From Somniosus microcephalus (Eukaryota), in assembly GCA_052327205.1 (NCBI GenBank), contig CM126219.1, positions 24,800,001 to 24,864,000 on the forward strand: a stretch of DNA of 64,000 bases. Direction: 5' to 3'. This document shows positions 17,212-44,581 of this stretch, one piece after another. The notes under the pieces are model-generated. The model saw only the letters and a list, made by a program, of their open reading frames with translations. It was not told the DNA's origin and did not search any database. How positions within the stretch are numbered: the first letter of the stretch is position 1; each line of letters starts with the position of its first letter. Made by a program: the position numbers and the translations under genes.

Positions 17212-19992
17212 CACTGAAGTGTCAGCCTAGATAATGTGCTTAGGTCTCTGGGCTGGAGCTGGAACCCACAACCCTGTGACTCCAACGACGGTGCAAGCTC
17301 AGACAATTGGTCTTTTATTGTTTCTTCTTGCCATTTTTGCCTTCCCTTAAATGAAGATATCAAGAAGTTATTACAAGCGTTCTTTTAGTTTTCAAACTCT
17401 ATGGGGTCGATTTTCCTGGAGCCGTCAGGTGGGGTTTCAGGCGTGTGGGGGGGGGGGGAAATTGCAAAAATAGGGGGTTGTGACACCCCCCCGCCTGATT
17501 CCCCACCCAGTCCGACTTTCACCCCGGCGTTTCAATTCGACCCGAATCAGTCCCGCCCGCAGCAGGCGGGACTGGACGTCAGGAGCCTAATCACCAATAA
17601 TTGGCTTCTTTAATGCCATTTTAAGGGGCCCTTGCTATTTTCAGCCTTTTCACACGCTAAACACACCTGGTGGAAACCCCGCTGATGAAACCTGGCGTGA
17701 ACAATGTCGGCTTGCTTACTTTCAGCTGCAGGTCAATCAGGAAAGAAGAGATTTAATCAGACAACATTTGTATGTTGCAGGACTTTGTTGTTTCAGGCTT
17801 GGGGCAACTTGTTCCAGGCTTAGGCACAGCTGTGGAAGGTTGGAACCTCACACACTTCTCCAGTGTGAGCTCCTGGGAAGCCCCTCTCGCCACCCTCACT
17901 CAGCGCTTCCTCAACTGAGGCACCTACCAGAAGCATGGGAGGCCTTTTTTTCCTTCCCCTCTTGGCATTAGAGGACCTCCAGCCCCAATCGCGAAATGAC
18001 ACACGCCACAACTGCAGAAGTTGCCATCTGAAATTTTATTTACAATAACCAACTGATGGCATTTTAAAAATAAACACAACATTTCGCCCAAGTGACTACC
18101 CTTGTGGTTAGTGGTGCTTTATTTTTCTCTTACACGTGCTCCTACATTGTGGTTCCCCTGTGGCTTCAGCAGATGTGGAGGCCCCTTGCTCACTTTCCTG
18201 CTGCTCCTGTCTCGACACCTTTGGCGGCCGTCCTCTGGGGTGGCGAGCCTGTGAGGGCTCGTCGGCAGTCTGCTGCTCCTGCGGCTGTGCGGGGGTTGAG
18301 ATGTCTATCTCACTTGGGTGTGGACTCCGGCAGGGCTCTGACCAAGGGCTCTGCAGTGGCATGGAAGTGTGAGCGCTTGGAGAGGAGCCCGCACTTCCTT
18401 GAGGTCTGCCACCAACCTCCCTCTCATGTGTCAGGTCCCCATCAGTGCCTGCAAGTGGCTTGAGAGCAGCTTGCTGCACATCAGGGGGTCCATGGGGACT
18501 CGTTTCTACAATGGCAGTCCTACTCAGAGGGCCTGCCATGAAGGTCTGGTTTCTCTGCTCAATAGCTGACCATCGCTCCTCCAGAGATGTCAGTCTATAC
18601 TGAACACTCACCATGTTTTCAACACTCTGGCGACTTAGCTCCTCCATGGCCGTAGCCATCCTCTCCTCTACTGTAGCCATCCTTTCCGCGGAGGTTGCCA
18701 TTCTTTCCGTGGTGATGCGTTCATGCGCCAATGACTCCACAAAGGCTCTGCTCATGTTCGCTATGGACTCCTCCATTCGCTCCACACTCGCAGCGACCCT
18801 GGAGACAAAACCTGCCAGAGACTCCTGCATCTGTGCATGGAGATCCATCACCTCTTCTCTTGCGGATGGCCCCAGAGGCAGAGGGTCGACATGCAGCAGA
18901 GCTGAGCTGGCAAAGTCCTGCGCCCTCTGACGAGGACTCTCCACTGCTGTCCCTGTCTCCACCATCTGCTGATGCTCACTTGTGAGCTGTGATACACCAG
19001 GTGACAACACTACTCTATCTCGCGAAGGTCCCATGAGGTGTGAGTGTCTGCGCTGATGCCGGGTGCGCTGAATTCTGCTGACGCTGCGCCCTCAGAGGTG
19101 GGTGCTTCCTCTGAGGCGTCTGGCTGCTCAGCCTCTTCCTCCTCCGCAGTGGGGACGGGGGCTTCGGATGGTCCTGTGGGGGAGTAAAGGAAAGAGTTAG
19201 AGATGTGATGCCAAGGTTACATGCACATTGGATTTTGCAGATGTTCATAAGTCCAAATGATGTAGCTTCAGAATCATAACAGCGACTCATGCTATGTCAA
19301 TGAGAGAGATGGAAAACTATTCTGTCACCAGCTTGCGGGTCTGCCCCTGTCTCTCCTTCCCCAGCTTCCGCAGCCACATCAGCCCTGACAATTTCCAGGA
19401 CTCCTTCCTCCCAGGGGGTCAGGTGGGCTATTGAGGGTGGGCCTCCTCCAGTCCTGGCTCGTTCTCTGTTGTTGTGAGCTCTCTTTTCCTGCAATGAGGG
19501 AGACAAGTGGAGTTTGAGTGAGAATGAAGGAGTGAGTGTAGAGATTGCATAGCATAGATACTTAGAGGGAGACAAAGATGGTGTGAGACTGCAAGACCAA
19601 GGGCCCTCCCTGTGTGTTGTCAGTTGTGCTGAAAGCATCAGAGTGAGAGGGAGTGTGAGGGCTGCATGGTGGAATAGTTATGTGAACGTGAGCATAGAGA
19701 GAGAGGGAATGGGTAAGGGTGTATTGATGTGACTGTTAAGTGAGATGTGGAGGAAGAGAGTGCTAAAGCTGAGTGCTGGTGGGGAAAGGCAATGGGGATC
19801 AGTTTGAGGGTGGCGGAAACTTCATACTTACTTTTCCTGTATGATGAAGGTCATGGAATCGCTTCCGACACTGTATCCAGGTTCTTCTGGTGACTCCCAG
19901 CGAGTTGCCATCTGCTGCCACCTGCATCCATGCAGCCTTGGTCTCAGTGGGAGGCCTCTTCCTCCCTGACCTAGGGAAGAGGACCTCCCTGT

Positions 19993-22900
19993 TGTTGTGT
20001 ATGTACCTTTAAGAGAATAACTGGTCTCAGACTGCAGTACCGGCAGTGACCACCCCTGCATAAAAGACGCTAGTGAGCCTCTGTGTTTTTAGTTTCACTA
20101 TGGGCTTCCACCAGTAAAGACTTATTTTGTTCACTCCTGCTGTCCGTGTCTCAATTATTCAGGGACGTAACACTGGCGACGAGTAAGAAACGAACTTACC
20201 TGCAACTCGGCAGCACCTCAGACGACGTTATTGAAGGTCGAATCCAGAAGAAAGAAAAAAATAAATAAACTCCAAAGAAACTCGAGAAACGGGTGTCGAC
20301 CGTGGGCAACCGCCCTCCAAATCGTCGGATTGAAAACTTGCAGGAGAGACTGTCCAGAGCCAGGCTTGGTTCCTCGGTCTGTGGTTTCCCAGCTAATCGG
20401 GCTGGTGGCAGGTAGTGCACTGATCCTTCCTGGGCTGCGGCGGGCTAGAGCTCAATCGGGTGGCTTTTCAACGGGGCCGGGCAGCGAGTCGGGAAGCAAA
20501 GAGAGAGAGAGAGGGTGGAGCACACAGGGCGCGGCCGGTGCTTCGAAGCCGGGCAGCGTTCGAACCTAAGAAGAGGGAGGGAAGTGTCCCAGAGGGTCCG
20601 CTCCACGACGGGAAAATAATAAAAGAAAAAAAATCAATATTAAACGCGCAAGAAACCGTGGAAAGCAGCGCTAACAACAGCGGGGAAGAAGGCAAAGCGC
20701 GGGAGGCGCCATTTTGTTAAATCGGGGAAGAAGGCAAAGCGCGGGAGGCGCCATTTTAGATTTGCAAGATGCCGAAGACTGGCTGTATCACTGCTTTTGA
20801 TAATACAATAGAGGACTGGACCACGTATGTGGAAAGAGTCGAGGTATATTTCGAGGCAAACGAAATAGCGGAGGGGAAAAAGGCATCGATATTGCTAAAC
20901 TTAATGGGCGCTAGAACGTACGGCCTATTGCGGGACCTGATTACTCCAGCCAAACCGAAGGCGAAGAGTTTTAACGAAATTGTTGCTGTCCTACAGGAAC
21001 ACTTAAACCCTGCACTGCTGTTGATAGCAGAAAGATTTAAATTCCACAGGAGAACTCAGCACAAAGATGAGAGCAATGCTGAGTATCTTACGGAACTACG
21101 CAAGCTATCAAAGCACTGCCAGTTCGGAGCAGGGCTGGCAGATACCCTACGGGGCAAATTTGTCTGTGGACTCCTGAGTGAAGGAACACAGAAGAAGTTA
21201 CTCGCAGAAAAAGAGCTGACGCTAGATAAGGCTTTCAGCGTGGCAGTATCGTATGAAGCAGCAGCCGGGGGAGCTGCAGAAATTCAACAAAAACCACAGG
21301 AATACAGCACCCACGAAATGACACGGGGATTTGCAAAATGTTATCGCTGCGGCAGAACTAACCATGACCAGAAGGACTGCTGGTCCAAAGACAAAATATG
21401 CAGACAATGCGGGAAGATTGGACACATTGCACGAGTTTGCAGGCCTGGGAAGAAGACCAGCGACAACAAAAAGGCTACTAAGGAACCGTACAAGAAAGTA
21501 CAAAAGATGACGGACAGTAGTTCCGAAGACCAGATGAGCGATAGTGAATCCGGGAACAGGAGACTAAGCTGTCTCAAACTTCACAATGTAATCGCAAAAG
21601 AGGATCACCGAACCATTTGGGTCACCCTCACGATAGCAGGGTCCCAAGTTAAAATGGAATTGGATACAGGATCATCGCTAACCGTCATGAATCGACGAGA
21701 CTACGAGCGGCTATTTTCACACATACCCTTGAGAGAGACATCCATCGTCTTGACGACGTATACGGGGCAAAAAGTATACCCCAGAGGAAAAATAAGGGTG
21801 CCTGTCGAATACAATGGCAAGAAAATACGGAAATTGTATCTCTACATACTGCCAAATGGTGGACCACCGTTATTGGGACGGGAATGGATCAGGAAGATAC
21901 ACTTAGATTGGCATTCCATTCATGCAATGACGGTGGACGGTAAAAAAGATGGAGACGTCACTCCTGGATGATTGTCAACAATCTTAGCTAACGCCAAAGA
22001 GGTATTTCAACAAGAACTGGGCACGCTTAAAGGCATAACCGCCTCGATAAAAATAGAAGAGAATGCAGTTCCCAAATTTTTCAAAGCAAGACCGGTACCA
22101 TATGCAATTCGCCCAGCCGTCAAGGCAGAGCTGGAGAATCTGGAGAAGGCGGGCGTGTTGTCTAAGGTCGCCTGGAGCGAGTGGGCGACACCCATCGTTC
22201 CTGTCATGAAGAAAACGTTAAGCAATAAGTCCGGGGAGCCAAGGAAGATTCGCATCTGTGGGGATTTCAAGGTGACGGTGAACCCAGTCCTTCACACAGT
22301 ACAATATCCTCTTCCAAGGATAGAAGACATCTTCGCCTCACTGTCTGGAGGGAAGCGTTTTACAAAAATTGACCTAGCACAAGCATATTTGCAGATGGAG
22401 GTTGAAGAGTCCTCTAGGAAGTATCTCACGATAAACACTCACAAAGGTCTTTACCAGTATCATCGATTGGTATTCGGAGTAGCATCGGCTCCGGCGATAT
22501 GGCAAAGAGCGATGGAACAAGTCCTGCAAGGGATTCCGGGGACTCAGTGTTACTTGGACGACATCCTTGTAACAGGTGAAGATGACAGTGAACACCTTAA
22601 CAACCTAGAACAGGTGCTCACTAGACTACGGGAACATGGGCTGCGAGGCAACCGCCCCAAGTGCGAATTTTTTAAGAAACAGATATCGTATTGCGGCCAC
22701 GTGATTGATGAAGAGGGGTTACATAAGTCCCCTGACAAAATTGAAGCGGTTGTTAAGGCCCCAGCGCCTGAAAATGTGTCGCAACTGAGGTCATTCCTCG
22801 GATTGGTGAATTACTATCATAAGTTTTTGCCGAATTTGTCGACAATTCTGCACCCGCTGAACGCCCTGCTACGAACGGGGGTAGCATGGAAATGGAGCGA

Positions 22901-25016
22901 TGATTGTAAGCGTGCTTTTCAGAAGAGTAAGGACTTAATCACTTCAAGGGAAGTATTGGCTCACTACAACCCAGCACTGCCGATCAGACTGGCGTGTGAT
23001 GCGTCTCCCTACGGCATTGGGGCGGTACTGTCACATAAATTCCTTGATGGTTTAGAGAGGCCGATAGCTTTTGCGTCACGCTCGTTAACTTCTGCCGAGC
23101 GTAACTACGCCCAGATTGACAGAGAGGCCCTCAGCCTAGTGTGGGGGGTGAAGAAGTTCAATCACTACCTGCACAGTCAAAAATTTACTCTACTAACCGA
23201 TCATCAACCTCTTGTCTCCATTTTCAACCCTCAGAAGGGCGTACCGATAATGACAGCACAACGGCTGCAGAGATGGTCCCTTTTCCTAGGGGCACACCAA
23301 CATGACATCGAGTACAAAGGAACTAAACAGCATGGAAATGCTGATGGATTGTCACGCCTACCGTTGCCGACGGTGGAAGAAGAAGACCTTGCAGTGGATC
23401 CAATGGAGTTATTCCACTCGACTATAGTCGAATGTCTCCCTGTGACGAATGCAAACATAGAAAAGGAAACACGGAATGACCCGACACTATCACGGGTCTA
23501 TGATTTAACGGTGAAGGGATGGCCAGCACATGGCGAACCACTGCTGCCAGCATTCTCGCCGAGAAGAGAACAGCTGTCAGTGTGCAGAGGAACCTTGATG
23601 TGTGGATCCAGAGTAGTAATTCCACCTAAGTTGACGGATAGAGTGCTCAATGAGCTTCATGAGGGTCATCTGGGTGGGGTAAAAATGAAGAACTTAGCCA
23701 GAGCGTTTGTGTGGTGGCCGGGAATCAATAGAGAAATCGAAGAGATGACCAAGAGCTGTGCAGGATGCCAGAAGGTCCAAAACGCCCCACCACAAGCTCC
23801 TCTGCATCCATGGGAGTGGCCCTCATCTCCATGGCAAAGGGTGCACATTGATTTTGCTGGTCCCTTCATGGACTCGATGTTTTTAATTGCGGTGGATGCA
23901 CGTTCAAAGTGGCCAGAGGTAATAAAAATATCCTCAACCACCACGGAAAAAACTATCACAGTTTTACGAACCATATTCGCCAGGAATGGGCTGCCTGAAC
24001 AGATTTGCTCTGACAATGGACCACAGTTTGTGTCTGAAGAGTTCCGGAGGTTCTTAAAGAACAATGGTGTTAAGCATTACACATCTGCTCCATATCATCC
24101 AGCCACTAATGGATTGGCCGAGAGGTTTGTCCAAACATTCAAGAAGGCTATCAAGGCAATGTGCAATGAAGATATACCCCTACAACACAAGGTGGACAAC
24201 TTCTTGTTTGCCTACCGGAATGCGACACATGCGGTTACCAACCAAACTCCAGCCATGATGTTCTTCAATCGAAGACTACGATGCCGCTTGGATTTGGTTA
24301 AGCCAAACGTCCGAAGAGATGTGGAGAACAGGCAGTTTCAGAATATGAATGAAAGGCCGAGCAGGAGTTTTAAGATAGGTCAACCAGTTTTGGCCCGGGA
24401 CTACTGCACTGAGAAATGGCAGCCAGGAACGATTTGTACACGACAAGGACCTCTCATGTATACCGTGGACGTTGGGGAGAGCATTGTAAGACGCCATGCT
24501 GACCAGATTCTAGAGTCACTGGAAAACGTCAACTCCACACCACGATCTGATACACCTGGTAATGAAATCGATGTTCCAATTGCAGCTACCACATAACCGG
24601 TGATATTGGAAGCAGATGAACCAAACAACGACATTGATCCCGACTCAACATTGCCAGAAGAACCTGATACCCCAAAGAGGCGTTATCCAGACAGAATCAG
24701 GAAGCCTCCTCAAAGACTGAACTTATAATTGCTTAAACTTAACCAATGTATCTAGCAACAGTAATAGTGATTGTAATTAGTTATCATTTAGTTGTTAAAT
24801 GAATGTTATGTACTGTTTATCTAAAAGGGGAGGAATTGTTGTGTATGTACCTTTAAGAGAATAACTGGTCTCAGACTGCAGTACCGGCAGTGACCACCCC
24901 TGTATAAAAGGCGCTAGTGAGCCTCTGTGTTTTTAGTTTCACTATGGACTTCCACCAGTAAAGACTTATTTTGTTCACTCCTGCTGTCCGTGTCTCAATT
25001 ATTCACGGACGTAACA
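19993..25016 (+). mobile_element. near-intact Gypsy (Mag-like) LTR retrotransposon C
   Basis: 180-bp LTRs 19993-20172 and 24837-25016 (4 mismatches seen); TG...CA; TSD CCTGT; PBS TGGCGACGAG; PPT AAAAGGGGAGGAAT. Confidence 0.97.
20769..24596 (+). pseudogene. gag-pol polyprotein of Gypsy C in a single frame with an internal TGA at 21969-21971
   Basis: Two CCHC knuckles, LDTG protease, YLDD RT, RNase H CDAS, integrase HHCC and DDE. Confidence 0.9.
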
Positions 25017-25980: not shown

Positions 25981-26729
25981 GGGCCAGAATATACTGTAGC
26001 CGCCGTTCGTTAGACTTGCCCTAATTTCTATGACCTTTTGCACAGGAAGTTGCTGTAAGTTAGCGAGCCAAACCTGCGCGGCGCCCTCTACAGGGCATCT
26101 GGGACCTGTGCGCACAGGCCAAGCAACAGTGGGTCTCCTTAACCAATCAGATTGAAGTATTGCAAATGGGCAGTGCAGAGTCTGAACCAGGGAGTGTAAA
26201 GTAGAATAGTGAATTCAATGTCAAATCAGGTACAGAAAGAGAAATAAAGAGAGGGAAGTAAAGATTGAATTAAGAGAAATAGATAAAAGAGACAGAAAGA
26301 AAAAGTTAAAAAAAAAGTAATTTAATTTAATTTTAAATCTCTAACAATTAAAATGTGAAGGAATGAGACTCCACGTTGTAAAAGTTAATTTTCAGTGTGA
26401 GGGAGGTTGTTTGGCAGTAATTAAGACTTACCATGCTGTCAAAAAGGGTACTTAGACTGAAATGGACAAGCCCTAACTTTCTGTGGTGAGTTTAGTCCGT
26501 AACTATGACGTCAGTACATGAACTTCAAGCTGTTCCTTACATTTGGGGAGCCAGACAATGAGATGCCGTTTTCACACAGTTTACGGAGGAACGGTGTATC
26601 TCGGACACCAACTTCCGGATTTTCGCATTTAACTGCGCATCTGCGCTCGCCGGGAGTTGCTGTCGGATTGCGCATAAATAACAGCTGGGCCGTTAGCCTC
26701 ACTCTTACCTTCACAGTAAATTCTGGCCC
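25981..26729. mobile_element. non-autonomous Harbinger-type element
   Basis: TIR GGGCCAGAAT / ATTCTGGCCC; TSD AAT. Confidence 0.85.
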
Positions 26730-29963: not shown

Positions 29964-29969
29964 TTTATT
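29964..29969 (-). promoter_or_regulatory. candidate polyadenylation signal AATAAA of the chitinase
   Basis: Conserved in the inverted paralog (772-777); a second conserved AATAAA is at 28870-28875 (paralog about 1524-1529). Confidence 0.45.
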
Positions 29970-30062
29970 CGTCTAGCAATTCCCAAGTTCCTATGATAGT
30001 TGACAGCATCTGAATGTACAAGTGAACCCACTCTGACCTGCATTTATCCAGCCAACATTGTT

Positions 30063-32318
30063 GGGCCAGAAATTCGCGGCAGAAGCGTGAGTACGGTCGA
30101 GGTACTCACGCATTTGGCCGTTGGAAATGCCGGCGTTCAGCAGGAACAGCGCAAGCGGGGAACGCCGGCATTTCCAGACCCGAGGTCTATTCACAGCGCG
30201 TGCGACTGCACAGGCAGCGCTTGCGCAGTGAACTTTGTGGATTTCAATGATGGATTCAGTGAGGGTAAGTCCTTAGAAGTTACACTTGAAAAAAGCAAGT
30301 GTAAAGTTGTTCATTGGCTGCGGAGGAAGATATATTTTATCGTGGAGCTTCTGAAATGCAATATTTTTGTTTGGGAAAGGGAGGGAAGTTATTTTAAGAA
30401 ATTTTAAGTAAGTTTTAAAGTTAAAATTTTTTTTTTTTAAAGGGTTTTCAGAACGGTAGGTAGAAGGAGCAATTGTGGCTGTGTGAATGGAATGTGAGAA
30501 TGAGTTATGTATGTATGTCCACATATATTCCTTTACGTATATGTATGTATGTTTTATATTCCTTTACTAATGTGTATGAATGTATGTTTTTAATTATGAT
30601 TTTCCAATAAGTTACTTTCTCTGAAAGTCATAATTAAATAATACATTCATACACATAAGTAAAGGAATATATACATAACACGCAAAGGAATATATACAGA
30701 CATACATACTTTCAGAAGCTCCACGATAATAAATATCTTCCTCCGCAGCCTCTGGAGCAACTGTACCCATGCTTTTTTCATGTGTAAGTTGTAATGACTT
30801 GACCTCACTGAAAGCATTAATGAAAGCGGCGAATTATACTGCGCACGCGCTGCCTGTGCAGTCGCACGCGTTCTGCCTCTGAACCCCTTCGTTCAGAGGA
30901 CAGGAAATGCCGGTTTTCCCCACATGCACTGTGCATGCTGAAAACCGGCATTTCATCCGGCCAGATGCGTAAGTACCCCGACCGTACTCGCGCATTTGGA
31001 AGGGAATTACTGGGCCAACATTTTACATGTCAATAAAATGAAAAATTTAACAATTGCACGACTTGCCCCCTCGCATCTGCGACTGAGGGTCCAAGGAGGT
31101 GCATTGCGCAAGAGGTCATCATCGTACGCATCCTCACACTGTTCCCTTTGGGGAACTGTATGAAGCGGTGGAAGGATTTATGGCCGTGATTAACGCTCAT
31201 TCCGTGACCGTAACCATCTTTGAACCAGCCATTAGGGTGGTTAGTCCTATGGCGGGAGGGTTTTACGGGCTCCCACAACCCATCTGAGGGGGGGGGCCAC
31301 CAACACCCACGGACGCAAGTATCCCGCTGGATGTCCACCCAGAATTTAAAGTTGGAGCTCCGACTCCACTTGCCGGGACTGTCTGGAGTGGGGTTCAAAA
31401 CCCTACTCCTTCTGGCCCAGCGGCGGGGATGCTTACTGCTATGCAAAAGGCCCACTCCGCACAAAAGGTGACACCCATACGTTTCCTGCGCCTTTTCCCT
31501 CCTCGTGACTGGAGCCCTATGCTGCCATTTCACGTTGCTAATCGGATTGGGCCTTTGTCATAGCGGTAGGATCCCCGCCGCTGGGCCAGATCAGGGTAGG
31601 GTTTCGAACCCCGCTCCAGACAGTCCTGGCAAGTGGAGTCGGAGCTCCGGCTCTAAATTCTGGGTTGACATCCAGTGGGATATTTGCGTCCGTGGGTGTG
31701 GGTGGCCCCCCCTCCTTGTATAGCTTGTGGGAGCCCGTAAAACCCTCCCGCCATAGGACTAACTGCCCTAATGGCTGGTTCAAAGATGGTTACGGTCACG
31801 GAATGAGCGTTAATCATGGCCATAAATCCTTCCACCACTTCATACAGTTCCCCAAAGGGAACAGTGTGAAGACACGTATGACGACGACATTGCTAAATAA
31901 ATAAATGGAATTAAAAAAATTCTTTTAGGGCTTTTAAAAGTCTTTAAATTGCTTTAATTCTCTTTAAAACTACTTCAGATTACTCAAAATAATGTAAACA
32001 TTTTAAAAAGTTTATAAAAGTTACCAAAATCTTCAAAAAACTTCCAAAAACCTATTTAAACTGCTGCTTTGCATGTAAAAATGCTTAGCAGCTTGACAGA
32101 AACATTGGGGGCGTGTCCAGTGAAACTGAGACCTCAAGGGGCGTGTCTCACTTGCACTGCACACTCCTGGCTTCGCGCTGGCTGCACTCCTGGGCGGCAT
32201 GACGTCATACGCTGCCCGGGATTCTTCTTTTTCAAACACCAAGTCCAGGCGTCCCTGGAGCTGATCGGCAGTAGTGCGGGGTAAGTGCATATACGGGGCT
32301 TGCACGCGCGGCAAGCCC
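30063..32318. mobile_element. unclassified 2256-bp insertion made of two long palindromes and terminal hairpins
   Basis: Absent in the paralog (empty site near 671-690); GTT repeated on both sides; palindromes at 30059-31020 and 31115-31888. Confidence 0.8.
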
Positions 32319-32357
32319 GTTATTTATCTCAGTAGAGTGCACGTACCTCCTTTGACA

Positions 32358-32623
32358 TCAAGGCCAGTTGCAGCAATTGCAGGAAGGATCAAAGACTAAT
32401 CCAGTGGCACATTCATTCACGTAGGTCATTCCATTAACACATCGATAGTATATGTTCTTATTTTCTGGGTCCACGTAGAAACCATTGGATTTGCCAGAGC
32501 AAAATTGGGGGTTGCCAGGACTAGTCTTCCCACCAGGAGGAGCAGCAGTAGTGGGAAGAGGAGGAGCAGCAGTAGTGGGATGAGGAGGAGTAGCAGTAGT
32601 GGGATGAGCAGGAGCCAAACATT
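32358..32623 (-). CDS. chia: chitinase exon 11 (P/T linker and CBM14 chitin-binding domain)
   Basis: Three PxxPTTAx-type repeats, then FCSGKSNG...YYRCVNG...[17 protein letters not shown]. Confidence 0.95.
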
Positions 32624-35600
32624 CTAGAAGGAAACAAGTTTCATTAATTCACAGTTTGTTTAAAAATTGATGTAAATTGATGTCGAGCATTGCATATTAA
32701 AGAGACATTGGGGGCGAATTTCGATTCCGCCCGAAACAGGGGCGATGTCCGAGGTTGAGGCAGTGCCACTCGCTCGAAACCCACATGGTTTGAAAGCTGC
32801 CGATGAGTAGCGGGCATCGAATGGGCATCCCACCGCAGGTCGCCAATTGTGGGAGGGCGGGAAAACCAGCCGGCCACCGCTCCCAGCCGGCTGGGAGGTC
32901 GGGCATGAGGAGGATGGGAGCTAAGCCCGCAGGAGGTTGAGCGCGGGCTGGCAGCAGCCTGCATTATTTCCTCCAGGCCCCACAAAAACTCTCACAAAGA
33001 AGTTTTTAGGCTTTTCCTGCCGCCAGCAGTCATTTAAGGGCCGCTGGTTAGGCCGCTCAGCCCTTGGTACGCTCAGCTCATTGGTACCTCAAAATTGCAA
33101 ATGGGGATCTACAACCGGCGGAGAGACCCGATTTGCATATTTAAGCAGCATCCTACCATGCTGCTCGCCTATTTGCAGGCCCAACTGAAAATTGCACCGG
33201 ACGGCTCCCCGCAACCTGCCCCAACTCCCCCCGCCCCCTCCTCACTCCCACCCATCCCGCTCCCGATTTTCAATTGCAGGCTGTCCGTTTTCAAGTGAGA
33301 AATAGGTAGAGGTCCCTTGAAAATCGCTCCCATTGTGGAACTTTGCAGGTAAACCCAGTTCCTGGGATCTCGAGAGACAGGTTGCTCAGTAAAGTTAGTT
33401 CAATGAGCAGCATTGAGGACAAGTCATGATGTTAAGTGGTGACTTATGAAATGTAAATTTTGAAATGTGGTTTTATTTTCACTCAGCATCAGCTGACAAA
33501 ATATAGGTGGGCGGTCCCTCTGATTAAAAGCTTGTGATGGTGTTACAGGTCATTTTATCACATGATGTTGCTCCTTTAAATGGCCGTAGACTTGAACACT
33601 GGGTTAAATATGTCAGGCAGTATCTGTGGAGAGAGAAACAGAGTTAACGTTTCAGGTCGATGACCTGCTGAGTATTTCCAGCATTTTCTGTTTTTATTTC
33701 AGATTTCCAGCATTCCTTCTCCCTCATCTGCTTCTCTAACCGCCCCTTAAATGCATCGATACTATTCGCTTCAATCACTCCCTGACGTAGTGAGTTCCAC
33801 ATTCTCACCACTCTCTGAGTAAAGATGTTTCTTCTGAATTCACTATTTGATTTCTTGGTGACTATCTTATATTGATGGCCTTTAGTTTTGCTCTTCCCCA
33901 CAAGTGGAAACATTCTTTCTGTGTTTACTCTATCAAAACCTTTCATAATTTTAAAGAACTCTATTAGGTCACCCCTCAGCCTTCTGCCTGTTCATCTTTT
34001 CCTGATAGGTGAGCCCTCGCGTTTCTGGTATCATCCTTGTAAATCAAGTGGGTATTATTTCCTTAATGTTTGTACATATAAGCCATACTACAGCTCCTGT
34101 TATCAAGTTTATTATTGGTATTACATACTCATTGGAAAATCCAACCATAATTTATGATCTCCACTGTTGAGGTATACGAGGGTTGAAGTCACACTATGTG
34201 ATATTAATAACCAATGTGATAATGCACTCATGTGAAATTCCTCTGGCTGCCATTTTAACCAGAGGTCTCAGCCTGTCGGGTTAATGTCTTAAGTAGTGGG
34301 TAATGAAATTTCAGACAAATATGCTAACAAGTGAATTACTAATATCAAACTGTGCGATTTAACACCACAATGTGTGGCTCTGTATTGTTGTGTCAATTTT
34401 GGTTTAGGATATTAATGCTAGCAATTCACATTAATTTCCTTCTAGTCAGGTAAGCAGAAGCAATGCCAACTGAAAGGATGATTTTCAGACGCATTTAGGT
34501 AATTTAAGGGCTCGCCGTACTGACTTTCTATTAAGCAACAACAAGTAGATGGTTCTGGCCGTAGAAAGTCACGACAAGGAATTACCTGGATTAATTTTAA
34601 GACCACTGTGTAGCTTGCTGATGAGAGGATAACGTCCCTGGTGGCAGAAAGTGCCACTGAAATCATCCAGAGAAAGGGTCCACACCATAGCTCCTCCAAT
34701 ATTGTTTTGCTTCAGCCACTTGATCTGGAATACAATATGGAAAAAATTCATCATGTGAATCACTGATAGCCTGCGGGCTTCTCTTCAAATGTGGTTGCAA
34801 GATCTAAAATATCCCAAATCATGAAGATAAAAACCACTCTGATTCTTATGTGTTATGTCTGAGGAAACACTCGTATCGGTGTGCTATTAACCAACTGCTT
34901 TTATTTCCAGATCCTCTAAAATCTTCCGGTCAAAGAATAACAAAAGCAATACAAGAGAGACCTTAGCGTGTAATTGCTACAATGTGCTTACTCCCATCAG
35001 GGAGCCATCCAGTTTTCAGTTAACTATATGCAAGTATCATTATGGAAGTACGCAGAGCTCCATCGCAACATACATATTGCTTTATATGGGAGTCTAGGGG
35101 GAATGAGGAAAAAAATTCCCATTTAGAAACACCTCAGTTTCAATTATCAATAATATTACTGCATTCGTATCTAAGGTGGCTCTGTTTCTGTCACAGTGTG
35201 TGGGTTGGGCACAATGAGATGAGTCGAAAAATAATATATGAATTTCTCGCTATATTGTTGTGTGAGGGGGTGAATCAGAAATAACAAGAGCAGCAATTGT
35301 AAATGTTGTCATGCCTAATTGTGTCTAACAAATTACAAAAGAAAATGGTTGGTTTTCCAAATACAGTTATTGAAAATCCCCATGATTAAAATAATGCTCA
35401 GAAAATCGTGGCTGCATTTTAGTTCTTGATATGTGGAGCTGGTGGGCAAGGCTCCTCAGTGGCTATGTGCATTCGGAAAGTCAGTCTTAAAGTGTACAGC
35501 AGTATGCATAGCGCACCTTGTCTTCATAGCTTTGTGGATTATCATAGCCAACCCATTCATTTCCCTTATATGCGTATGGAACCATCTGTGAAGAGTCCCA

Positions 35601-38600
35601 TTTTTCGGTCGCACCTTTTAAGAAGAGGCAGATCTGTTGAAAGAATGAGACATTAGGATGCAACACTTTGTAGTTAAATTTTCACTGGTTTGCAGTAATT
35701 CAAGTGCAGTAAAGATCTACTTAAATTAATTAGCTCCTGTTAGGTTTACTCAGCTCTTCTGGACTTTTTCTTCTGTAATACACATTACACTTTACTTAGA
35801 ATCTATGGGGAGTACAGTAATTTGATTTTGGGTGATAGTGTAAAATGGGGGAGATCGATTCAGCCACCTGTTATACATCTCTCCCAGTTTTCAGCGGGAG
35901 AGCTCGTTACTTTTGAACTATCACCCAAAGTCAAAAATATCCCCTTTGAATTTTGATCCAAATTACCAAACCCCAAGCAATGCCTCATAAGGTGACACAA
36001 ATATTTACTGAAGGGTATCTGGCCATTCCCCACATGGCAAGTTCCCAGTCTCGACCATGCCATTATGAGGTGGTGCCCAGCTGAGGCCAGTAGCCTTCTG
36101 ATAGAGAGGGTATCCAAAGAATTGGCTCAAGAATGATATTGGAAGTAACCTCAGGCCCAGGTCTTTGCCCAGCTTATCCATTAGGGAATTGTGCAAGGCA
36201 ATCAGGAACAAACGGCGGAAAGAAAAATAACTTTTACACCTGGCAAAAACTAACTGCTTGAAAAGGAAGCATCTGAAGTTATAGAGTTTTATAAGATAGT
36301 AAATGGCATGGAAAAGGTAAATCTGGAATAGTACTTTAAACTGTGGGAGTAAGACAAGGAGACACAAGTTCAGACTAGGAATAGGTAACTTTAGGCTTGA
36401 TATCAGGAGATCCTTCTTCACACAGAGAGAATTCCAACAATTGGAATGAACATCCCAGTAGAATTGTAGGGGCAAAAACTCTGGAAGTATTTAAGAAACA
36501 ACTGGATGCTGCAATAGGACTGTAGGGCGCTTCTCGAAGAATAAACTAATATGGCCACAATGGTCTTCCTCAACCATTATTATCTTGTGATAAACAGGCG
36601 ACGAGATAACAAAGTTCCCAGTCAGTCTAAATTGTTTCCCCTCCTCCCATCCACCTTAAGGAAATTGATATATAATTAATGTCAATTAAGCTTATGTTTT
36701 CTCATGGCAAAATATGAGATTTTCAAGGAGCTTGGATAGTTAGTATATTTTGTAAATACCTCAAAGTAGGCCAGGAACCCAGTTTGTTGTGTGTAATGCC
36801 CAGCTGGTCCAGCGCCATTTGCTGGGGCATCGACAGCAGTGTTGGATGTGCTCAGTCTGAATGTGTGACCATAAGCAGGGAATCCAGCGTTCAGTTTCTC
36901 TGCAGGAGCTCCGTTATCCTTCCAGTATTTCATGGTGTAGGCCTGTGCAGAGATTGGTAACATTAACGCTTAGTTTCAAGAAGACTGCAAGCATTTTATA
37001 AAAGATGGTGAGCTAGTTGTAAAACTGAAATAATTAACATTCATGAATGCGTACCATATTAAAGTACCGGTTACCGCCTTGGGCGGAAGGGAGGGCATAA
37101 AGAGGACTATTTTCTCCAGCGAAGGTATTCCATGGACCATAGAAATCATATGTCATCACATTGAAAAAGTCTAGAGTTCTGTAGGAAGGAAGATCTGTGA
37201 GTAACATTGATATCTTACCAAGTAAAATATATATTCATTCTTAACCTTATTCTCAGTCTTCTCTTCTTCCTGTAATCTAAAGCCCAATTGATGTTTCACC
37301 TCCCTTACTGCTCTGTTTCCCTTGTCTTCTCTCTTACTCTTTTCCACCATGGTATTGTCCTGCACTACGGGCCTTGGCCCATCATCTAGGTTATTCAGCA
37401 ATAAAATAATGGAATATTTTGACTAGGATATCCCTGAAAATATAAATTATGAACATGATCGTTGCTTTGTGACACAATTGTAGTGTTTGTATAGGAAAGA
37501 AAGCAGTGTGTTAATTGCCTTAAATTCTCCGGTAATGTTTTATGAACATATTGAGATTATATTCAAATCTTAATCTGAGCGTTGAACCCACTGGGACAGA
37601 CTATCATCAAACAGCTTCACCTATACTTAACTGAGGACTTAGTGCTACCTCCCAATTGAGGATAGAAATTAAGGCAAAAAAATCCCCCAGAATATAGTGA
37701 ATATGTATAACTGGCTCTATTGATTTTGATACCTTTAAAGAGATTGATATCTGTTGAGAAGAGGGTCAAAGCTTATCGAGGTATTAACAGCACTGCTTGA
37801 GTTTTGTTTTCCCTAGGGAAGATAAGGAAAGGAACTATTGGTGTCCCTTAATGTAGAGCATTAGCAATACTGTAGGAGGGAAACACATAATAGGCAAATC
37901 ATTCATGAACCCTGCAATGAGCAGGATTGAAGGGCTAAATGCCTTTTTCTCAATTCAGCCGTTTTTAAGTTATGATTTCAACAAATAACTTAAAATTCAT
38001 TCCGGTGGCTTCCAACCTGAATTAAAGGCTTCAGTTAACTAAGAGCTTTATAGCAACTCCAACCGCCAGAAACAAGGAGTAGTTGAGGCGAATAGTAGAG
38101 ATGCATTTAAGGAGAAACTCGATAAGCACATGAGGGAGAAAGGAATAGAAGGATAGGCTGATAGGGTTAGATGAAGTGAGGTGGGAGGAGGCTCGTGTGC
38201 AGCATAAACACCGGCACGGCCTGTTTCTCTGCTGTAAATTCAATGTAATTCAATCAGTAACTAGTGGTGTTCCGCAGGGGTCAGTGCTGGGTCCCCAACT
38301 CTTTACAATCTATATTAATGATTTGGAGGAGGGGACCGAGTGTAACATATCAAAGTTTGCAGATGATACAAAGATGGGAGGGAAAGTAGTGAGTGAGGAG
38401 TGATATGCCATCAATAACTCAAAGACAAGGATTCAACTGAAGGTTTTTAATCACTAAGAACATTGCAGGTCTTCCCACATCGGGTTCGTCTGGTAGGAAT
38501 GACTCATACAGCTCTTGAGACCTTTATATGGCAAAAGACAGGGGCGTAGCCAATACACACAATAGGAACAAAAGGGGGCGGTTCACACAATACAAGCAGG

Positions 38601-41600
38601 TAAAACACATGGGCTGATGAAGGCATATATTTCATCACAAGGAGGACATAAAAAACCTGCAAAGTGACATAGACAGGCTAAGTAAGTGGGCAGAGATTTG
38701 GCAGATGGAATACAATACTGGAAAGTGTGAGGTTATGCACTTTGGCAGGAAAAATCATAGAGCAAGTTATTATCTTAATGGCAAGAAACTGGAAAGTACT
38801 GTAGTACAAAGGGATCTGGGGGTCCTGGTGCACGAAACTCAAAAAGTTAGTATGCAGGTGCAGCAAGTGATCAAGAAGGCCAATGGAATGTTGGCTTTTA
38901 TTGCTAGGGGGATAGAATATAAAAACAGGGAGGTATTGCTGCAGTTATACAAGGTATTGGTGAGACCGCACCTGGAATACTGCATACAGTTTTGGTGTTC
39001 ATACTTAAGAAAAGACATACTTGCTCTCGAGTCAGTACAAAGAAGGTTCACTCGGTTAATCCCGGGGATGAGGGGGTGGTCATATGAGGAGAGGTTGAGT
39101 AGATTGGGACTCTACTCATTGGAGTTCAGAAGAATGAGAGGCGATCTTATTGAAACATATAAGATTGTGAAGGGGCTTGATCGGGTGGATGCGGTGAGGA
39201 TGTTCCCAATGATGGGTGAAACTAGAACTAGGGGGCATAATCTTAAAATAAGGGGCTGCTCTTTCAAAACTGAGATGAGGAGAAACTTCTTCACTCAGAG
39301 GGTGGTAGGTTTGTGGAATTTGCTGCCCAGAAAGCTGTGGAAGCTACATCATTAAATAAATTTAAAACAGAAATAGATAGTTTCCTATAAGTAAGGGGAA
39401 TTAGGGGTTATGGGGAGCGGGCAGGAAATTGGACATGAGTCTAGGTTCGGAATGGCCATGGCCCTGTGGGTAGTGGAGCGGGCCCAGGGGCCGTGTAGCC
39501 TGGTTCTGCTCCTACTTCTTGTGTTCTAATTCTGTGTTAGATTTCAGGAGATGGTTTTATTCCTGTTCCTGGCTGGGGTGGAGATCGCCTTTACAGAAGG
39601 TAAGTACTGTAGAAAATATAGGGACAGAGTGATCTCCTGGAAAAGTTTCGATCGCCTAGATGGGTCGGAGAGGAATTTCCCAGATTTTTTTCTCCCAAAT
39701 TGGCCATTGGGTTTTTTATCTGGTTTTTCGCCTCTCCCGGGAGATCACGTGGGTTTGGGTGGGATGGAGAGTGATAGAAGATTTGAGGTTAGGATCAGAT
39801 CAGCCATGATCTTATTGAATGGTGGAGCAGGCTCGAGGGGCCGATTGGCCTACTCCTGCTCCTATTTCTTATGTTCTTATGTAATATTTATCACTAAAGA
39901 AGGAAACATGAGCTTCCCTAACAACTGAGTGAGCTAATGCAGAGCCTGGTGTGGTACTGAGTATTATAGACCAGCAATTTCCGGGCATGCGCTGAGCGAG
40001 CTGATCTCCTCTATGCCGGTGCTACATTTGACCTATAAGATTGAAACCAGTACTCACTGGCCCAGCTGTGGAATCTCATAGGCCGATTCGATTGTGGATT
40101 TTCCAGCAGCCACCGCAGCTGAGAGTAAGAGCCTTGGTTTCCCAATACTTTTTCCTTCTGCTTCAAAGGCTGCTCTCAGTTCCTAAAAGCCAAAAATATT
40201 GTAGTTTCCCTTATTAACCGACTTGCACAACATGGAAGCTTCAAAAGACGACCAAAGGAACATTAGGTTCCTTGTTTTGAAAATGTATCCATGGACAATA
40301 ATGAAGCATTATTGGAATCCAACAAGGTGTTGTGTCACTTTAACATTGCGATTGGTTCCAGATTTTTTTCAAGGTTTATAAAGACTATTAAAAATCTTCA
40401 CATTTGCATCCCACATTAATACAAGGGTAGCTCAATCTTCATAGCTTTGTGGATTATCATAGCTAGTCGGTAGAGCATCAGACTTTTAATCTGAGCGTCC
40501 AGGGTTCAAGTCCCTGTTCGGGTTTTGATTTTTAAACAGACTGATACCTGGGATGGTAGGAATGACGTATGAAGAGAGATTGGGTCGACTAGGCTTATAC
40601 TCGCTGGAGTTTAGAAGAATGAGAGGGGATCTCATTGAAACTTATAAAATTCTAACAGGACTAGACAGACTAGATGCAGGAAGGCTGTTCCCGATGGTGG
40701 GGGAGCCCAGAACCGGGGGTCACAGTCTAAGGATAAGGGGTAAGTCATTTAGTACAGAGATGAGGAGGAATTTCTTCACCCAGAGAGTGGTGAACCTGTG
40801 GAATTCTCTACCACAGAAGACAGTTGAGGCCAATTCATTAAATGTATTCAAGAGGGAGTTAGATATATTTTTTAAGGCTAAGGGGATCAAGAGATATGGG
40901 GAGACGGCAGGGACAGGGTACTGAATTTGGACGATCAGCCATGATCTCATTAAATGGTGGAACAGGCTCGAGGGGCCGAATGGCCTACTCCTGCTCCTAT
41001 CTTCTATGTTTCTATGTTTCTATAAGGACATGTCACTGACACTAACTTGGTAATGTGTTTCATTTACTTACTCATGTGTTGTTACATTTTTCGACAAATG
41101 ACAAATAATTTATTCTGTGGGTAGTGTTTGGTTTTTGACAGTTCTTAGACTGAGTAACTAACCAGTTAGGTGCACTCGGTCCTACCTGTGTTAGGGTTGT
41201 GAAGAGCTGCTTGTCATGCGGGGGGCTTCCTCTTGACCCGGGATACTCCCAGTCTATGTCCAAACCATCGAACCCATATTTGCGCAGGAAGCTAATCGTT
41301 GACTTTATGAATGTTTGTCGATTTTCAGCTGTGGAAACCATGGCGCTGAACCTGGAGAAGAAAGTTAAAGTAAAATCCTCATTGAGAACAATGACTGGCT
41401 GTGAAACGACGGTGACATTTATTTTGCTCGTTTCTCTTCGAGTCTCCTACATATGTTTTTTGGAGTTTGGTGACTCTTGCCAACATATGTTAAGAAGCAA
41501 AACAATATTTGTTAGTCAATTGTTCTCATTTTATTTCATGAAGATTTTGAAAAAAATTGTTTCCCGATACAACAAATGTTTCCATCTTACTTTTGAGTTC

Positions 41601-44581
41601 CAAAGTTCCAGCCTCCGACAGAGAGAAGTGTTTTAAGGTTTCCATTCCTGTGGCAAATTAAACAAATACAGTAGTTGCTTTAGAAAAAATAGTGAATGTA
41701 ATAAAACACATTCAATAATATGAGAATAATTACTGAAATTACTCTAAAATATCACAGGCCTAATCCCTTTAGTACTCTCACTTTGATAATAAATCTAATT
41801 GAGGTTCAGTTTCTCAGTCCAGTGGTTATAGTTCACTGGTGTATGAACACAATGTACAACAAGGTGATAGGGCCCTGATTTGTACTTTAGTGCAAGTTTG
41901 TAATTTCCTCTACGGCAGTTTCCTATTCTTCGCTGAGTTGTTAAGTGGATGTGTGATGCTGCCTCACAGGGAGCAGAGGTCAGTGAATAAGTCGCCCTTG
42001 CACTGAACTTATGCATCTCTTAGTGGCCACACAACAGGACTGGCACAGCTCTAGGGCCACATTGCTTGCTGGTCCTCACAGAATGGAAATGATAAGAGGA
42101 ACTTAAACAAGGGGAATATAAATGCAGAGCAATACATCTTTTGTAGAAGACTATATACTATGCAGTTGATTAAAACAAGACTTAGAATTTGGGAGTTAGT
42201 TACAGATGTACAGTACCTGGATTTAAGAGCATTGAATGATTTGTAGAGAGTCACGTCATTCCATTCAATAGTGACGATTTCATTGTTGTTCATACCAGCA
42301 AAAGCATAGATCAGGTGAGTGCACATGCAAGGGTCCACATCATCTGGCATGTAACTTGCTACTCCTGGTCTATACTGAGCCCAGTTTGCAAAGTAACAAG
42401 CCAGTCTGTAGGCAGAGCCTGTGAGTGGGGAGAAGTGGAAATCAGGACAGCGCTTCTACTCATTGCATTGAATAAAGAAACACTTGGAATGCACAAAGAC
42501 TTACCCAGTTCCAGGCAGGCCAACAAGAGCACCGCTACAATAAAGAATATAGGATAAGTGTTAGAATTATGATCAAATGCTGCCTGAAGGTTCAGAGATT
42601 CCCAGTAGTATTTATGCCCAAGTTGTTAAGGTTACACTTTAAGCTCGAGTTTCTCAGCCCAATGAAGCAGTGCACTGATACACGAATGTGTCAGGATTGG
42701 CTTCCTGACCTGAGCTGTTGTGATGAGGTGCTCAGTGCATTAATGTATCATTGACATGTATTTGTTTAAGTAAACCTGGCATGGCAGCAAGGTTATATTA
42801 ATGACTGAACTTGCTGAATAATAGTTGCTCAGCAATTACGACATGGGACACTAGTGTACAAAGGCTTAATGCGTTTGTCTGAAATACTCTGTCCACTATT
42901 TTAGCAAAAGTATAACACACTTTATTTCTATGCCTTCATACAAACAGGTTAAAACATTCCGACACTGGTTTCCGATGGAGGCCCATTGATTTATAAAGTA
43001 CTTTTCTGAAACAATGTTATCAGTGTTGCAAATAGGTCAAAATTATAAGGACTGCACTTTATTTAAATATTATCACCTCACACTTAGCTTTCAATGGATG
43101 TTAAAGTTAGACATGACAGGAAGACATAGCGTAAGAATATAAATATATGGAGTGGGAAAAGACCAGTTGGTCCACTGGGCTAACTTCTTTAGGTTGTCCT
43201 TCTATAATTTGCTCTCACAAATGTATTTAATCTCTAGGATCATGATTTCAAGATGATTTCTCCCTGAACCTGGCAATAATCAAGCAAAAACTCTTAGATA
43301 TTAATCTAACAGAACAGCAACAACAACAACTTGTATTTATATACCACCTTTAACATAGTAAAATGTCCCAAGGCGCTTCACAGGAACATTATCAAACAAA
43401 ATTTGACACTGAGCTGCATAAGAAGATATTAGGACAGATGTGCAAAGGCTTGGTCAAAGAGGTAGGTTTTAGGGAGTGTCTTAAAGGAGGTTAGTCAGGT
43501 AAAGAGGTGGAGAGGTTTAGGGGGGAATTCCAGAGCTTAGGGCCTAGGCAGCTTACAGGCACGGCTGCTAATGGTGGAGCGATAAAAATCGGGGATGGGC
43601 AAGAGGCCAGAATTGGAGGAGCGCAGATATCTCGGAGGGTTGTAGGGCTGGAGCAAGTTACAGAGATAGGGAGGGGCGAGGCCATGGAGGGATTTGAAAA
43701 CAAGGACTAGAATTTTAAAATTGAGGCGTTGCCGGTCTAGGAACCAATGTAGGTCAGCGAGCCCAGGGGTGATGGGTGAAAGGTACTTGGTGAGAGTTAG
43801 GATACGGGCAGCAAAGTTTTGGATGAGCTGAAGTTTATGTAGAGTGGAGGATGGGCGGACGGCAGGAGAGCGTTGGAATAGTCAAGTCTAGAGGTAACAA
43901 AGGCAAGGATGAGGGTTTCAGCTGCAGATGAACAATCTAAGTTATATAAACCTGCCCAGTCCCATTTTATGGGAGTGGCAAATAACAAGGTGTGAAACTT
44001 TTAATTATGCATTTGTACGCAGGGACATTGCAATCTCAAAGGACAATACCTTTGGTTAAATAAATAGAAATTAAATCACAAATGACTGCAGTTCACTGAA
44101 TCATTTCATCTTGTAACTGTTGACATGTTTTTACACCTTTTACTACGTGTAGAGTCCACACTTACCTTCTGTATAAAGTGTTGCGGGACGTCTGTTGTTT
44201 GCAGAATCAGATTACATGCAGTTTGAAGTAAGGAGTGCGCAAATAGTTTATTTTCAGGAATAAATTGTGAAATTTCTTGGTAAATTCCTCAGCAGGCGAA
44301 GCTATGCAATACTGCATGTTATTCACCAAACAGGAATGATCTAAATCAGCATAAAACTCACTGCATTAAACTGAGACAAAATAAGTATGTAATCTGAAGA
44401 GCTTTTGCTGTGAGAAAAGGACAAAAACATTCACTAAGAATTGATTTCTTTACAATTAAATTGGGAAAGGAGTGTTCACTTTGTTCATTTAATTCCTGAA
44501 TCTTTTGTAAAAATCCTACGATATAAAATATATCTAAATGAAAAAAGCAAACTCACCTGTCTTGAGTATAAATGTTGTCAT
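32358..44581 (-). CDS. chia: GH18 chitinase, acidic mammalian chitinase/chitotriosidase-like; 11 coding exons, 1434 nt, 477 aa: join(44581-44557,42534-42505,42418-42217,41647-41591,41351-41186,40182-40058,37178-37055,36942-36760,35633-35517,34724-34586,32623-32358)
   Basis: All introns are GT-AG with consistent phases. Exon sizes 25/30/202/57/166/125/124/183/117/139/266 match the vertebrate CHIA layout. Protein has a signal peptide [38 protein letters not shown], catalytic [27 protein letters not shown] and a C-terminal 6-Cys CBM14. Exact orthology (chia vs chit1) is not resolved. Confidence 0.93.
32710..33331. mobile_element. non-autonomous Harbinger-type element in chitinase intron 10 (also in the paralog at 1-345)
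   Basis: Imperfect TIR GGGGGCGAATTTC / GAAAATCGCTCCC; TSD ATT. Confidence 0.7.
33612..33712. mobile_element. Penelope-like pseudo-LTR fragment with head-to-head inversion
   Basis: tcaggcagtatctgtggagagagaaacagagttaacgtttc joined to tgacctgctgagtatttccagcattttc. Confidence 0.55.
33713..33985 (-). mobile_element. CR1 3' ORF2 fragment
   Basis: ORF 33644-33946 ...[12 protein letters not shown]... Confidence 0.75.
34586..34724 (-). CDS. chia: chitinase exon 10
   Basis: [38 protein letters not shown]..., 139 nt. Confidence 0.95.
35517..35633 (-). CDS. chia: chitinase exon 9
   Basis: [39 protein letters not shown], 117 nt. Confidence 0.95.
36275..36590 (+). mobile_element. degenerate CR1 3' fragment
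   Basis: ttcttcacacagaga...tggaat motif and CR1-like tail. Confidence 0.55.
36760..36942 (-). CDS. chia: chitinase exon 8
   Basis: [17 protein letters not shown]...GFPAYGHTF...GFLAYFE, 183 nt. Confidence 0.95.
37055..37178 (-). CDS. chia: chitinase exon 7
   Basis: [27 protein letters not shown]...YFNM, 124 nt. Confidence 0.95.
38255..39882 (+). mobile_element. 5'-truncated CR1 (RT to 3' tail), interrupted by a solo LTR
   Basis: [18 protein letters not shown] 38705-39355, (TTCTTATG)n tail. Confidence 0.9.
38401..38639 (-). mobile_element. solo LTR (239 bp)
   Basis: TG...CA ends; 5-bp TSD AGGAG; removal restores the CR1 sequence; TATAAA on the minus strand. Confidence 0.85.
40058..40182 (-). 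CDS. chia: chitinase exon 6
   Basis: [41 protein letters not shown], 125 nt. Confidence 0.95.
40421..40523 (+). tRNA. tRNA-Lys(UUU)-derived pseudogene with a 31-nt insertion in the D-loop
   Basis: GTCGGTAGAGCATCAGACTTTTAATCTGAGcGTCCAGGGTTCAAGTCCCTGTTCGGG matches vertebrate tRNA-Lys-TTT with one substitution; anticodon TTT 40485-40487; B box 40503-40513; T runs at 40523-40533; acceptor stem only partly paired. Confidence 0.85.
40535..41023 (+). mobile_element. 5'-truncated CR1 directly following the tRNA-like sequence
   Basis: ORF 40553-40924 ([14 protein letters not shown]...); (TTTCTATG)n tail. Confidence 0.9.
41186..41351 (-). CDS. chia: chitinase exon 5 (catalytic motif)
   Basis: [14 protein letters not shown]...[17 protein letters not shown]..., 166 nt. 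Confidence 0.96.
41591..41647 (-). CDS. chia: chitinase exon 4
   Basis: [19 protein letters not shown], 57 nt. Confidence 0.95.
42217..42418 (-). CDS. chia: chitinase exon 3
   Basis: [18 protein letters not shown]...[14 protein letters not shown]...ALKSR, 202 nt. Confidence 0.95.
42505..42534 (-). CDS. chia: chitinase exon 2 (signal peptide, [11 protein letters not shown])
   Basis: 30-nt exon, tgtag| acceptor and |gtaagt donor. Confidence 0.88.
43316..43932 (-). mobile_element. L2-type LINE 3' end
   Basis: [21 protein letters not shown]; (TTG)n tail. Confidence 0.8.
44557..44581 (-). CDS. chia: chitinase exon 1 (MTTFILKT)
   Basis: ATG about 37 nt downstream of TATATAAA; 25 nt; donor G|GTGAGT. 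Confidence 0.85.

Follow-up and report, generated by a model that had tools for sequence, protein, structure and literature searches.

The window analysed here, 64,000 nucleotides in all, is of vertebrate origin and contains many remnants of LTR elements and LINEs; the look of its repeats suggests a cartilaginous fish as host. A gene of acidic-chitinase type occupies part of the − strand: its GH18 exon motifs are found upstream (42323-35555, −; best match acidic mammalian chitinase, E 4e-24), and its last exon (32358-32510, −) encodes a CBM_14 domain (Pfam CBM_14, E 7.8e-12) with the stop codon at 32358-32360. An insert of 2,256 bases (30063-32318) ends 39 bases beyond this stop codon. The first AATAAA downstream of the stop is located on the far side of the insert (29964-29969, −), and the paralogue described below keeps one at 772. 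The insert, placed between the stop codon and the first downstream AATAAA, is therefore within the presumed 3′ untranslated region. Two ATTAAA words inside the insert on the chitinase strand (31953-31958, and 30589) could end the chitinase transcript earlier. GH18 chitinase exon motifs at 14184 (−) and 35555-42323 (−), with an inverted last exon at 380-640, outline a tandem, inverted chitinase cluster.

The insert is flanked by GTT at 30060-30062 (+) and 32319-32321 (+), the two copies of a 3-bp duplication or of a fixed core. The initial annotation had proposed that an inverted paralogue supplies the empty site, giving exact boundaries and a duplicated GTT, and our alignments agree. The paralogue (560-820, with GTT on the − strand near 681) was located by blastn, by a 19-mer that occurs once (672-690) and by alignment; 243 of 259 aligned bases agree between its reverse complement and the joined flanks, and blastn places the break at 30062/32319. 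There is one GTT in the paralogue and GTT-insert-GTT in the filled locus, and the right copy is further placed by comparison of the repeat pair. The whole 2.26 kb is missing from the empty site. This single empty site, one locus for the 3-bp repeat, is compatible with three registers: a variable 3-bp duplication (Harbinger type), insertion of 30062-32320 between T and T (HLE2), and crossover at a fixed GTT (tyrosine recombinase). The paralogous CBM_14 exon (380-640, +) is frameshifted by a small deletion (...VTYVRKLD-stop), and the empty-site copy may thus be a pseudogene; the copy with the insert has an intact CBM_14 exon.

The insert begins with GGGCCAGAAATT (30063-30077, +), a terminal repeat of Harbinger type, and continues into the first of two large palindromes. 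The left outer arm of palindrome 1 (30063-30356, +) was delimited by folding and alignment and contains the 10-bp hairpin reported before at 30085-30111 as well as a perfect 17-bp hairpin at 30122-30176 that had been overlooked. The outer arms (30059-30356/30710-31020) are complementary in 239 of 297 paired columns, and the inner arms (30509-30604/30623-30709) in 79 of 87, the latter forming a TATG-rich inner stem with an 18-nt loop (30509-30709). The left side has 152 additional, unpaired AT-rich bases (30357-30508, +) for which the right arm has no partner, and these figures reproduce the arms and the extra segment of about 150 bp described initially. The extra segment belongs to the family, as loose ends of contigs from the public runs X8 and X1 enter it (25 of 25 and 28 of 30 bases match).

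The right outer arm of palindrome 1 (30710-31019, −) has at its end an internal copy of the terminal repeat (GGCCCAGTAATT when read inward, at 31016), which matches the left terminus at 12 of 15 bases, or at 15 of the 20 terminal bases, and begins GGC, not GGG. Directly after this copy comes AAC (31017-31019), the exact complement of the GTT of the locus, so that the flanks of palindrome 1 are GTT/AAC, with no duplication. Palindrome 1 alone thus has a good repeat pair (12/15) but no duplication, whereas the whole insert has the duplication but a match of only 7/15 between its ends. The RNA folds of the two palindromes reach −489.5 and −672.8 kcal/mol, values as low as which were found in 0 of 20 shuffles in each case.

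Palindrome 1 is followed, always in the majority sequence, by a 95-bp spacer (31020-31114) and then by palindrome 2, for which the arms (31115-31459, +; 31543-31888, −) and the loop of about 83 nt given by the initial annotation were recovered with 313 of 343 paired columns complementary. The left arm has a weak direct repeat on both sides (score reached by 7 of 1000 shuffles) and is missing in rare variants: among the joints listed (15 of 26), those skipping it run 31105>31459 and 31111>31465 in X6, and 31077>31461, 31103>31465 and 31116>31484 in X8. These rare contigs, joining the spacer directly to the loop, suggest that the left arm was probably added later as an inverted duplicate, or else that it drops out now and then between the repeats. 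The 83-nt loop (31460-31542) is complementary to neither terminus (495 and 183 of 500 shuffles score equally), which led us to reject palindrome 2 alone as a DIRS element with the loop as its complementary region. A B-box/T-arm-like word is found in both arms (31383-31393, +; 31600-31610, −); an A-box-like word comes after it, not before, and no tRNA was called. Near the outer ends of palindrome 2 is a small hairpin, GTTCCC-TTTG-GGGAAC (31139-31157 and 31846-31866), which recalls the start of fish DIRS elements.

The tail (31889-32295, −) is AT-rich in 31889-32060 and then GC-rich with promoter-like words, all of them consensus motif matches only: TGACGTCA at 32200, GGGCGTG twice, and CCAAT on the − strand. 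Words like TGACGTCA near ends carry little weight, being present in 3 of 10 local ends and 24 of 213 window tiles. The right terminus (32296-32318) is the 8-bp hairpin GGGCTTGC/GCAAGCCC already annotated, in a region that folds weakly beyond chance (z −1.5; 9 of 200 shuffles as good). As the initial annotation stated, this is no ordinary terminal inverted repeat: the right end shares with the left only its 4 terminal bases, GGGC/GCCC, and 7 of 15 overall. Words shared between the two ends do not exceed chance (82 of 300 shuffles at 7-mers). Read inward, both ends have about 250 GC-rich bases followed by an AT-rich tract, and the two AT tracts align better than 496 of 500 shuffles, which as 1 of 15 tests is not significant after correction. 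The spacer was considered as a diverged left end of the tail and rejected (65 of 500 shuffles equal the score).

The absence of a recognisable coding motif was borne out. Among the 25 stop-to-stop frames of at least 50 aa that overlap the insert, none reached the Pfam curated cut-off; no Rfam family reached its gathering score in the insert (7 weak matches), ARAGORN called no tRNA there, and a simple pattern for the hammerhead core gave no match. Searches with two spurious protein frames were likewise empty, both for the right-end frame in a search for other copies (0 of 6 candidates passed) and for the left-end frame (0 matches in 1.84 billion representatives). Exact-pattern scans gave 0 and 0 matches in metagenomes, 0 in prokaryote genomes and 0 in viral contigs.

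Eight candidate local repeat pairs were picked from 146 motif matches in the window. Four of the eight are flanked by exact, variable 3-bp duplications (CTT, AAT, ATT, ATA), and one matches in two of three bases (TAT/TGT); the three pairs without duplication were dropped from the end profile, for which 10 ends were retained. Four of these elements are further Harbinger-type MITEs with non-TWA duplications: 12002-12847 (CTT), 14637-15366 (TAT/TGT), 25981-26729 (AAT) and 32710-33331 (ATT). The element at 45640-47317 has GGCC-starting repeats, the ATA duplication and a Myb/SANT frame (45730-46263; Myb_DNA-bind_5, E 1.5e-4). Myb/SANT is the second Harbinger protein in the accessible text of PMC9179366, and from this frame within one local pair we infer that the local elements are of Harbinger type and that 45640-47317 is a Harbinger remnant; of 67 candidates obtained for the Myb frame, none passed at E 1e-5. 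Harbinger is reported absent from the elephant shark in the accessible part of PMC9179366, which calls for other cartilaginous fish, and is listed for the whale shark in that of PMC8455134.

The initial annotation had likened the left end to local Harbinger terminal inverted repeats, and this likeness stands: its first 9 bases are those at both ends of the MITE 25981-26729, and it scores 14.0 on the local profile, a value reached at 9 of 127,976 positions. This profile is partly circular, since the pattern used to pick its training ends was itself modelled on termini of this kind. For the inner end of palindrome 1 the score is 6.9 (reached at 151 positions) and for the true right end −7.8 (17,231 positions), against leave-one-out scores of −0.2 to 11.6 for the training ends.

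We examined the abundance of the insert in public sequencing data. Eleven runs matched, five of them with half or more of the words, and contigs of four runs (X1, X2, X6, X8) were aligned to 30614-31545, that is 932 of the 2,256 bases, covering one arm per palindrome (palindrome 1 right arm, spacer, palindrome 2 left arm and loop); the last 400 bases and the right terminus are known from this one locus. In total, 9,750 contigs of X6 and 1,627 of X8 aligned. Summed depth in X6 is 0.8-3.0 million in the outer arm of palindrome 1, 0.68-1.08 million in the spacer, 1.2-2.2 million in the arm of palindrome 2 and 0.4-0.9 million in the loop. The arms are deeper because both arms map there, and 19 of 36 listed variant sites inside arms have the letter of the partner arm. 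Depth does not break at the joint of palindrome 1 and spacer (1.59, 1.26 at the joint bin, and 1.08 million), which is also bridged by X2 record 12 (30868-31179, 5 differences) and X1 record 6 (30973-31163, 6 differences). No pile-up of contig starts or ends is reported at the joints. An X1 contig runs through palindrome 2 into the first 30 bases of the tail (29 of 30 match). Detail among the matches listed extends to 28 of 11,438 pieces, 22 of 447 loose ends and 15 of 26 joints, and a minority of short copies may exist. Collectively, these results show that the parts are linked from 30614 to the start of the tail, a stretch over which the insert is no chance nest, and palindrome 1 does not appear to move alone. 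Within the palindrome 1 arm, 20 contigs of X6 and 5 of X8 represent a subfamily whose sequence differs immediately before 30831.

Summed contig depth is not copy number; if a single-copy sequence is assumed to have a depth of 20-40, with an overlap factor of 1-2, it gives a rough estimate of 8,500-54,000 copies, which we read as of the order of 10^4. This copy differs at 15 of 871 bases (1.7%) from five near-identical low-depth contigs, picked from 12 listed X1/X2 pieces of which the other seven are short and 82-91% alike. The near-identical pieces have a depth of 3-15, compared with about 40 for the other contigs of X2, and we take them as probable carry-over, representative of the majority sequence and not a sign of host range. 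The insert belongs to a very abundant, young mobile family and is about 2% from its majority sequence. At another locus, a single X6 contig (record 14, 88% alike) matches the insert together with TT, not the G of GTT.

What emerges is an element that is real, young, very abundant, non-autonomous and of unusual build. The reading that we favour, at a probability of about 0.52, is a non-autonomous transposon of Harbinger type, composite in build, whose working right end is distal and does not match the left. A PIF/Harbinger-type DDE transposase would move the element in trans, its 3-nt staggered cut leaving GTT twice. Palindrome 1 would be an old Harbinger-type MITE of which the left terminal repeat still works as the left end and the right repeat is bypassed, the enzyme cutting 1.3 kb farther, at the hairpin that starts with GGGC, and taking spacer, palindrome 2 and tail along. 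Palindrome 2 may have formed earlier by inverted duplication of one 345-bp arm. Both palindromes would be carried along and copied as double-stranded DNA, rather than serving as templates that every cycle rebuilds. The arms are 80-91% alike and the copies about 2% apart, which argues that the arms are not restored from each other, and mismatches between arms show no G.U strand bias (26:20, p 0.46).

Several observations argue for this composite. The insert has a 3-bp duplication against an empty site where local elements have variable 3-bp duplications, and its left end has the profile score given above; X6 record 14, one contig, slightly favours a variable NTT target because it matches TT and not G. 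Like PIF/Harbinger MITEs (Tourist-like, PHIS superfamily) as described in the accessible parts of PMC4482050 and PMC9179366, the insert has a 3-bp duplication, G-starting ends, no coding capacity and a high copy number, and its left end matches neighbouring elements in the window. Unlike them, it carries a right repeat that does not match (4 bp) and has the cognate right repeat internally, and it is 2.26 kb long with two internal palindromes of 0.8-1 kb. The right end is no terminal repeat (4 bases, 7/15, −7.8), where the accessible text of PMC4482050 gives 5-1042 bp for Harbinger terminal repeats. GTT also deviates from the TWA consensus, as do the targets of the local elements. Further against the reading, a good inner repeat (12/15) goes unused and palindrome 1 is apparently immobile alone, no partner transposase gene was found, and, with a variable duplication, AAC as complement of GTT would by our own very rough estimate be a coincidence of about 1 in 20. 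The composite leaves three points unexplained: a right end that does not match, an inner repeat that goes unused, and the coincidence of AAC. Although on this reading the insert would function as Harbinger MITEs do, we do not file it as one because its two ends, when compared, are not paired repeats.

A first alternative, which we consider rather improbable, takes the two unlike ends (left GGGCCAGAAATT, right the GGGC hairpin) as the natural ends of an undescribed autonomous transposon, of which the insert would be a deletion derivative; the right arm of palindrome 1 would then be a later inverted copy of the left end, and the enzyme a Harbinger relative or another. Such an origin accounts for palindrome 1 being immobile alone and for high abundance despite the non-matching end, and it fits the common inward layout of the ends with its AT tracts (496/500, without significance after correction). 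It is opposed by the lack of shared words beyond chance between the ends, and no autonomous partner of this kind was seen.

Somewhat less probable is a rolling-circle element of HLE2/Helentron type, HINE-like, that spans 30062-32320 in GT|T without duplication and took its 5′ end from a Harbinger MITE. The element would start with T and end with hairpin-GT, between two Ts. This T|T register is consistent with the empty site, there are hairpins near both ends as in the non-autonomous HLE2/Helitron2/Helentron elements (HINE, DINE-1), X6 record 14 matches TT and not G, and the accessible text of PMC11417382 and PMC5148889 describes HLE2 insertion between T and T as well as exchange of left ends. 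However, the subterminal or asymmetric inverted repeat of 8-18 bp that defines HLE2/Helentron elements is absent: three end-to-end comparisons gave 5 nt at best, a length reached by 86 of 100 and 100 of 100 shuffles, and a 9-nt match (3 of 100 shuffles) sits 240 bp from the right end. The hairpin distances also differ from those in the accessible parts of PMC3627910 and PMC4067079, the 5′ hairpin starting, in the one orientation that allows T|T, about 22 nt inside, not 0-2, and the 3′ hairpin lying 1-2 nt from the end, not 8-35. In addition, a coincidence (1 in 4) would be needed for the G, the 5′ end coincides exactly with a repeat of Harbinger type, and the end hairpin, which we also considered as extending over GTT and rejected, is not stabilised by it (rank 32 of 64 trinucleotides). 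Read on the − strand, the element has its hairpin at the very terminus but lacks both a 5′ T and a TT site. The Helitron1 features (5′ TC, 3′ CTRR, A|T site) were found neither at the ends nor at the empty site. The initial annotation had likened the end hairpins to Helentron-associated elements and had offered a rolling-circle family or a chimera among its readings; a chimeric origin is likely, and the rolling-circle link is not supported, given the missing subterminal repeat and the hairpin distances. Of its term foldback, the shape is retained. Foldback elements (Drosophila FB, Galileo) have very long inverted repeats that fold back; those of the insert are internal, in tandem, and do not pair its two ends.

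Less probable still, the insert might be a passenger of a tyrosine recombinase, in which a circle joined at GCCC-GTT-GGGC recombines into a genomic GTT, as for fish DIRS elements, and the right arm of palindrome 1 with AAC is the relic of an internal complementary region. The accessible text of PMC3266345 describes fish DIRS1-like elements (GaDIRS1/2, TnDIRS1a) that start and end with GTT and have AAC at an internal junction, and that of PMC7192593 a hairpin near the 3′ end of DIRS-1. The insert has an NTT trinucleotide at both ends (GTT/GTT, one locus), a hairpin at its 3′ end and, internally, a complement of its left end that reaches as far as AAC (31017-31019), a likeness overlooked in the initial annotation. 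Unlike DIRS1-like elements, it lacks inverted repeats pairing its two termini (282 of 500 shuffles equal the score of the left 300 against the right 260 bases), the complementary region lacks its right half, with nothing complementary to the right end after AAC (65 of 500 shuffles score equally), the internal copy has diverged to 15/20 where DIRS needs near identity, and there are no genes. The strand bias expected from RNA pairing is absent (26:20, p 0.46), and X6 record 14 stops short of the G, a weak point from one contig of 88% identity. Cryptons differ as well, with terminal direct repeats of 4-6 bp in the accessible part of PMC3212892, compared with 3 bp here.

Some 10^4 copies with unlike ends and either a fixed GTT crossover or a hairpin that replaces a terminal repeat would imply an end-recognition rule not described before, whether of a tyrosine-recombinase passenger without the DIRS-type complementary region or of a transposase able to combine a Harbinger repeat at one end with a hairpin at the other; taken jointly, we hold this to be unlikely.

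A chance nest of two or three independent families at the locus, named in the initial annotation as the case that would overturn a single unit, is very improbable: palindrome 1 has its own repeat pair, X1 record 5 is a diverged piece of palindrome 1 in unrelated flanks and the right end is known from this locus alone, but depth in X6 and X8 is comparable through arm, spacer, arm and loop over 30614-31545, contigs bridge the parts without a pile of contig ends at the joints, loose ends run into the 152-bp segment and the tail, and the empty site lacks the whole 2.26 kb.

Should the composite Harbinger-type reading hold, a cut-and-paste element would thrive although one of its ends does not match and a better one inside is passed over, and end recognition by Harbinger would become directly testable. 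About 10^4 copies of 2.26 kb amount to tens of megabases, with two 300-bp stems per copy, and such stems are possible sources of double-stranded RNA and of rearrangement; near-perfect long inverted repeats are described as rare in genomes in the accessible text of PMC4470032. We found no description of such an element in the literature, including the accessible parts of PMC9210276 and PMC12440569. The family may already be named in Repbase or Dfam, since any de novo repeat finder would catch such abundance. Unclassified abundant repeats are common in such genomes, with 10.8% given for the whale shark in the accessible part of PMC8455134.

Elsewhere in the window, four stretches (2309-5870, 20760-24596, 7887-11211 and 60502-63339) hold two gag-pol remnants of Gypsy type, a LINE whose first frame is of GDSL-esterase type, and a frame of 945 aa that matches DUF1759 weakly. 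A tandem array of about 1.5 kb (15723-17212) has a period of 33/66 bases and repeats about 94% alike, and is open in several frames.
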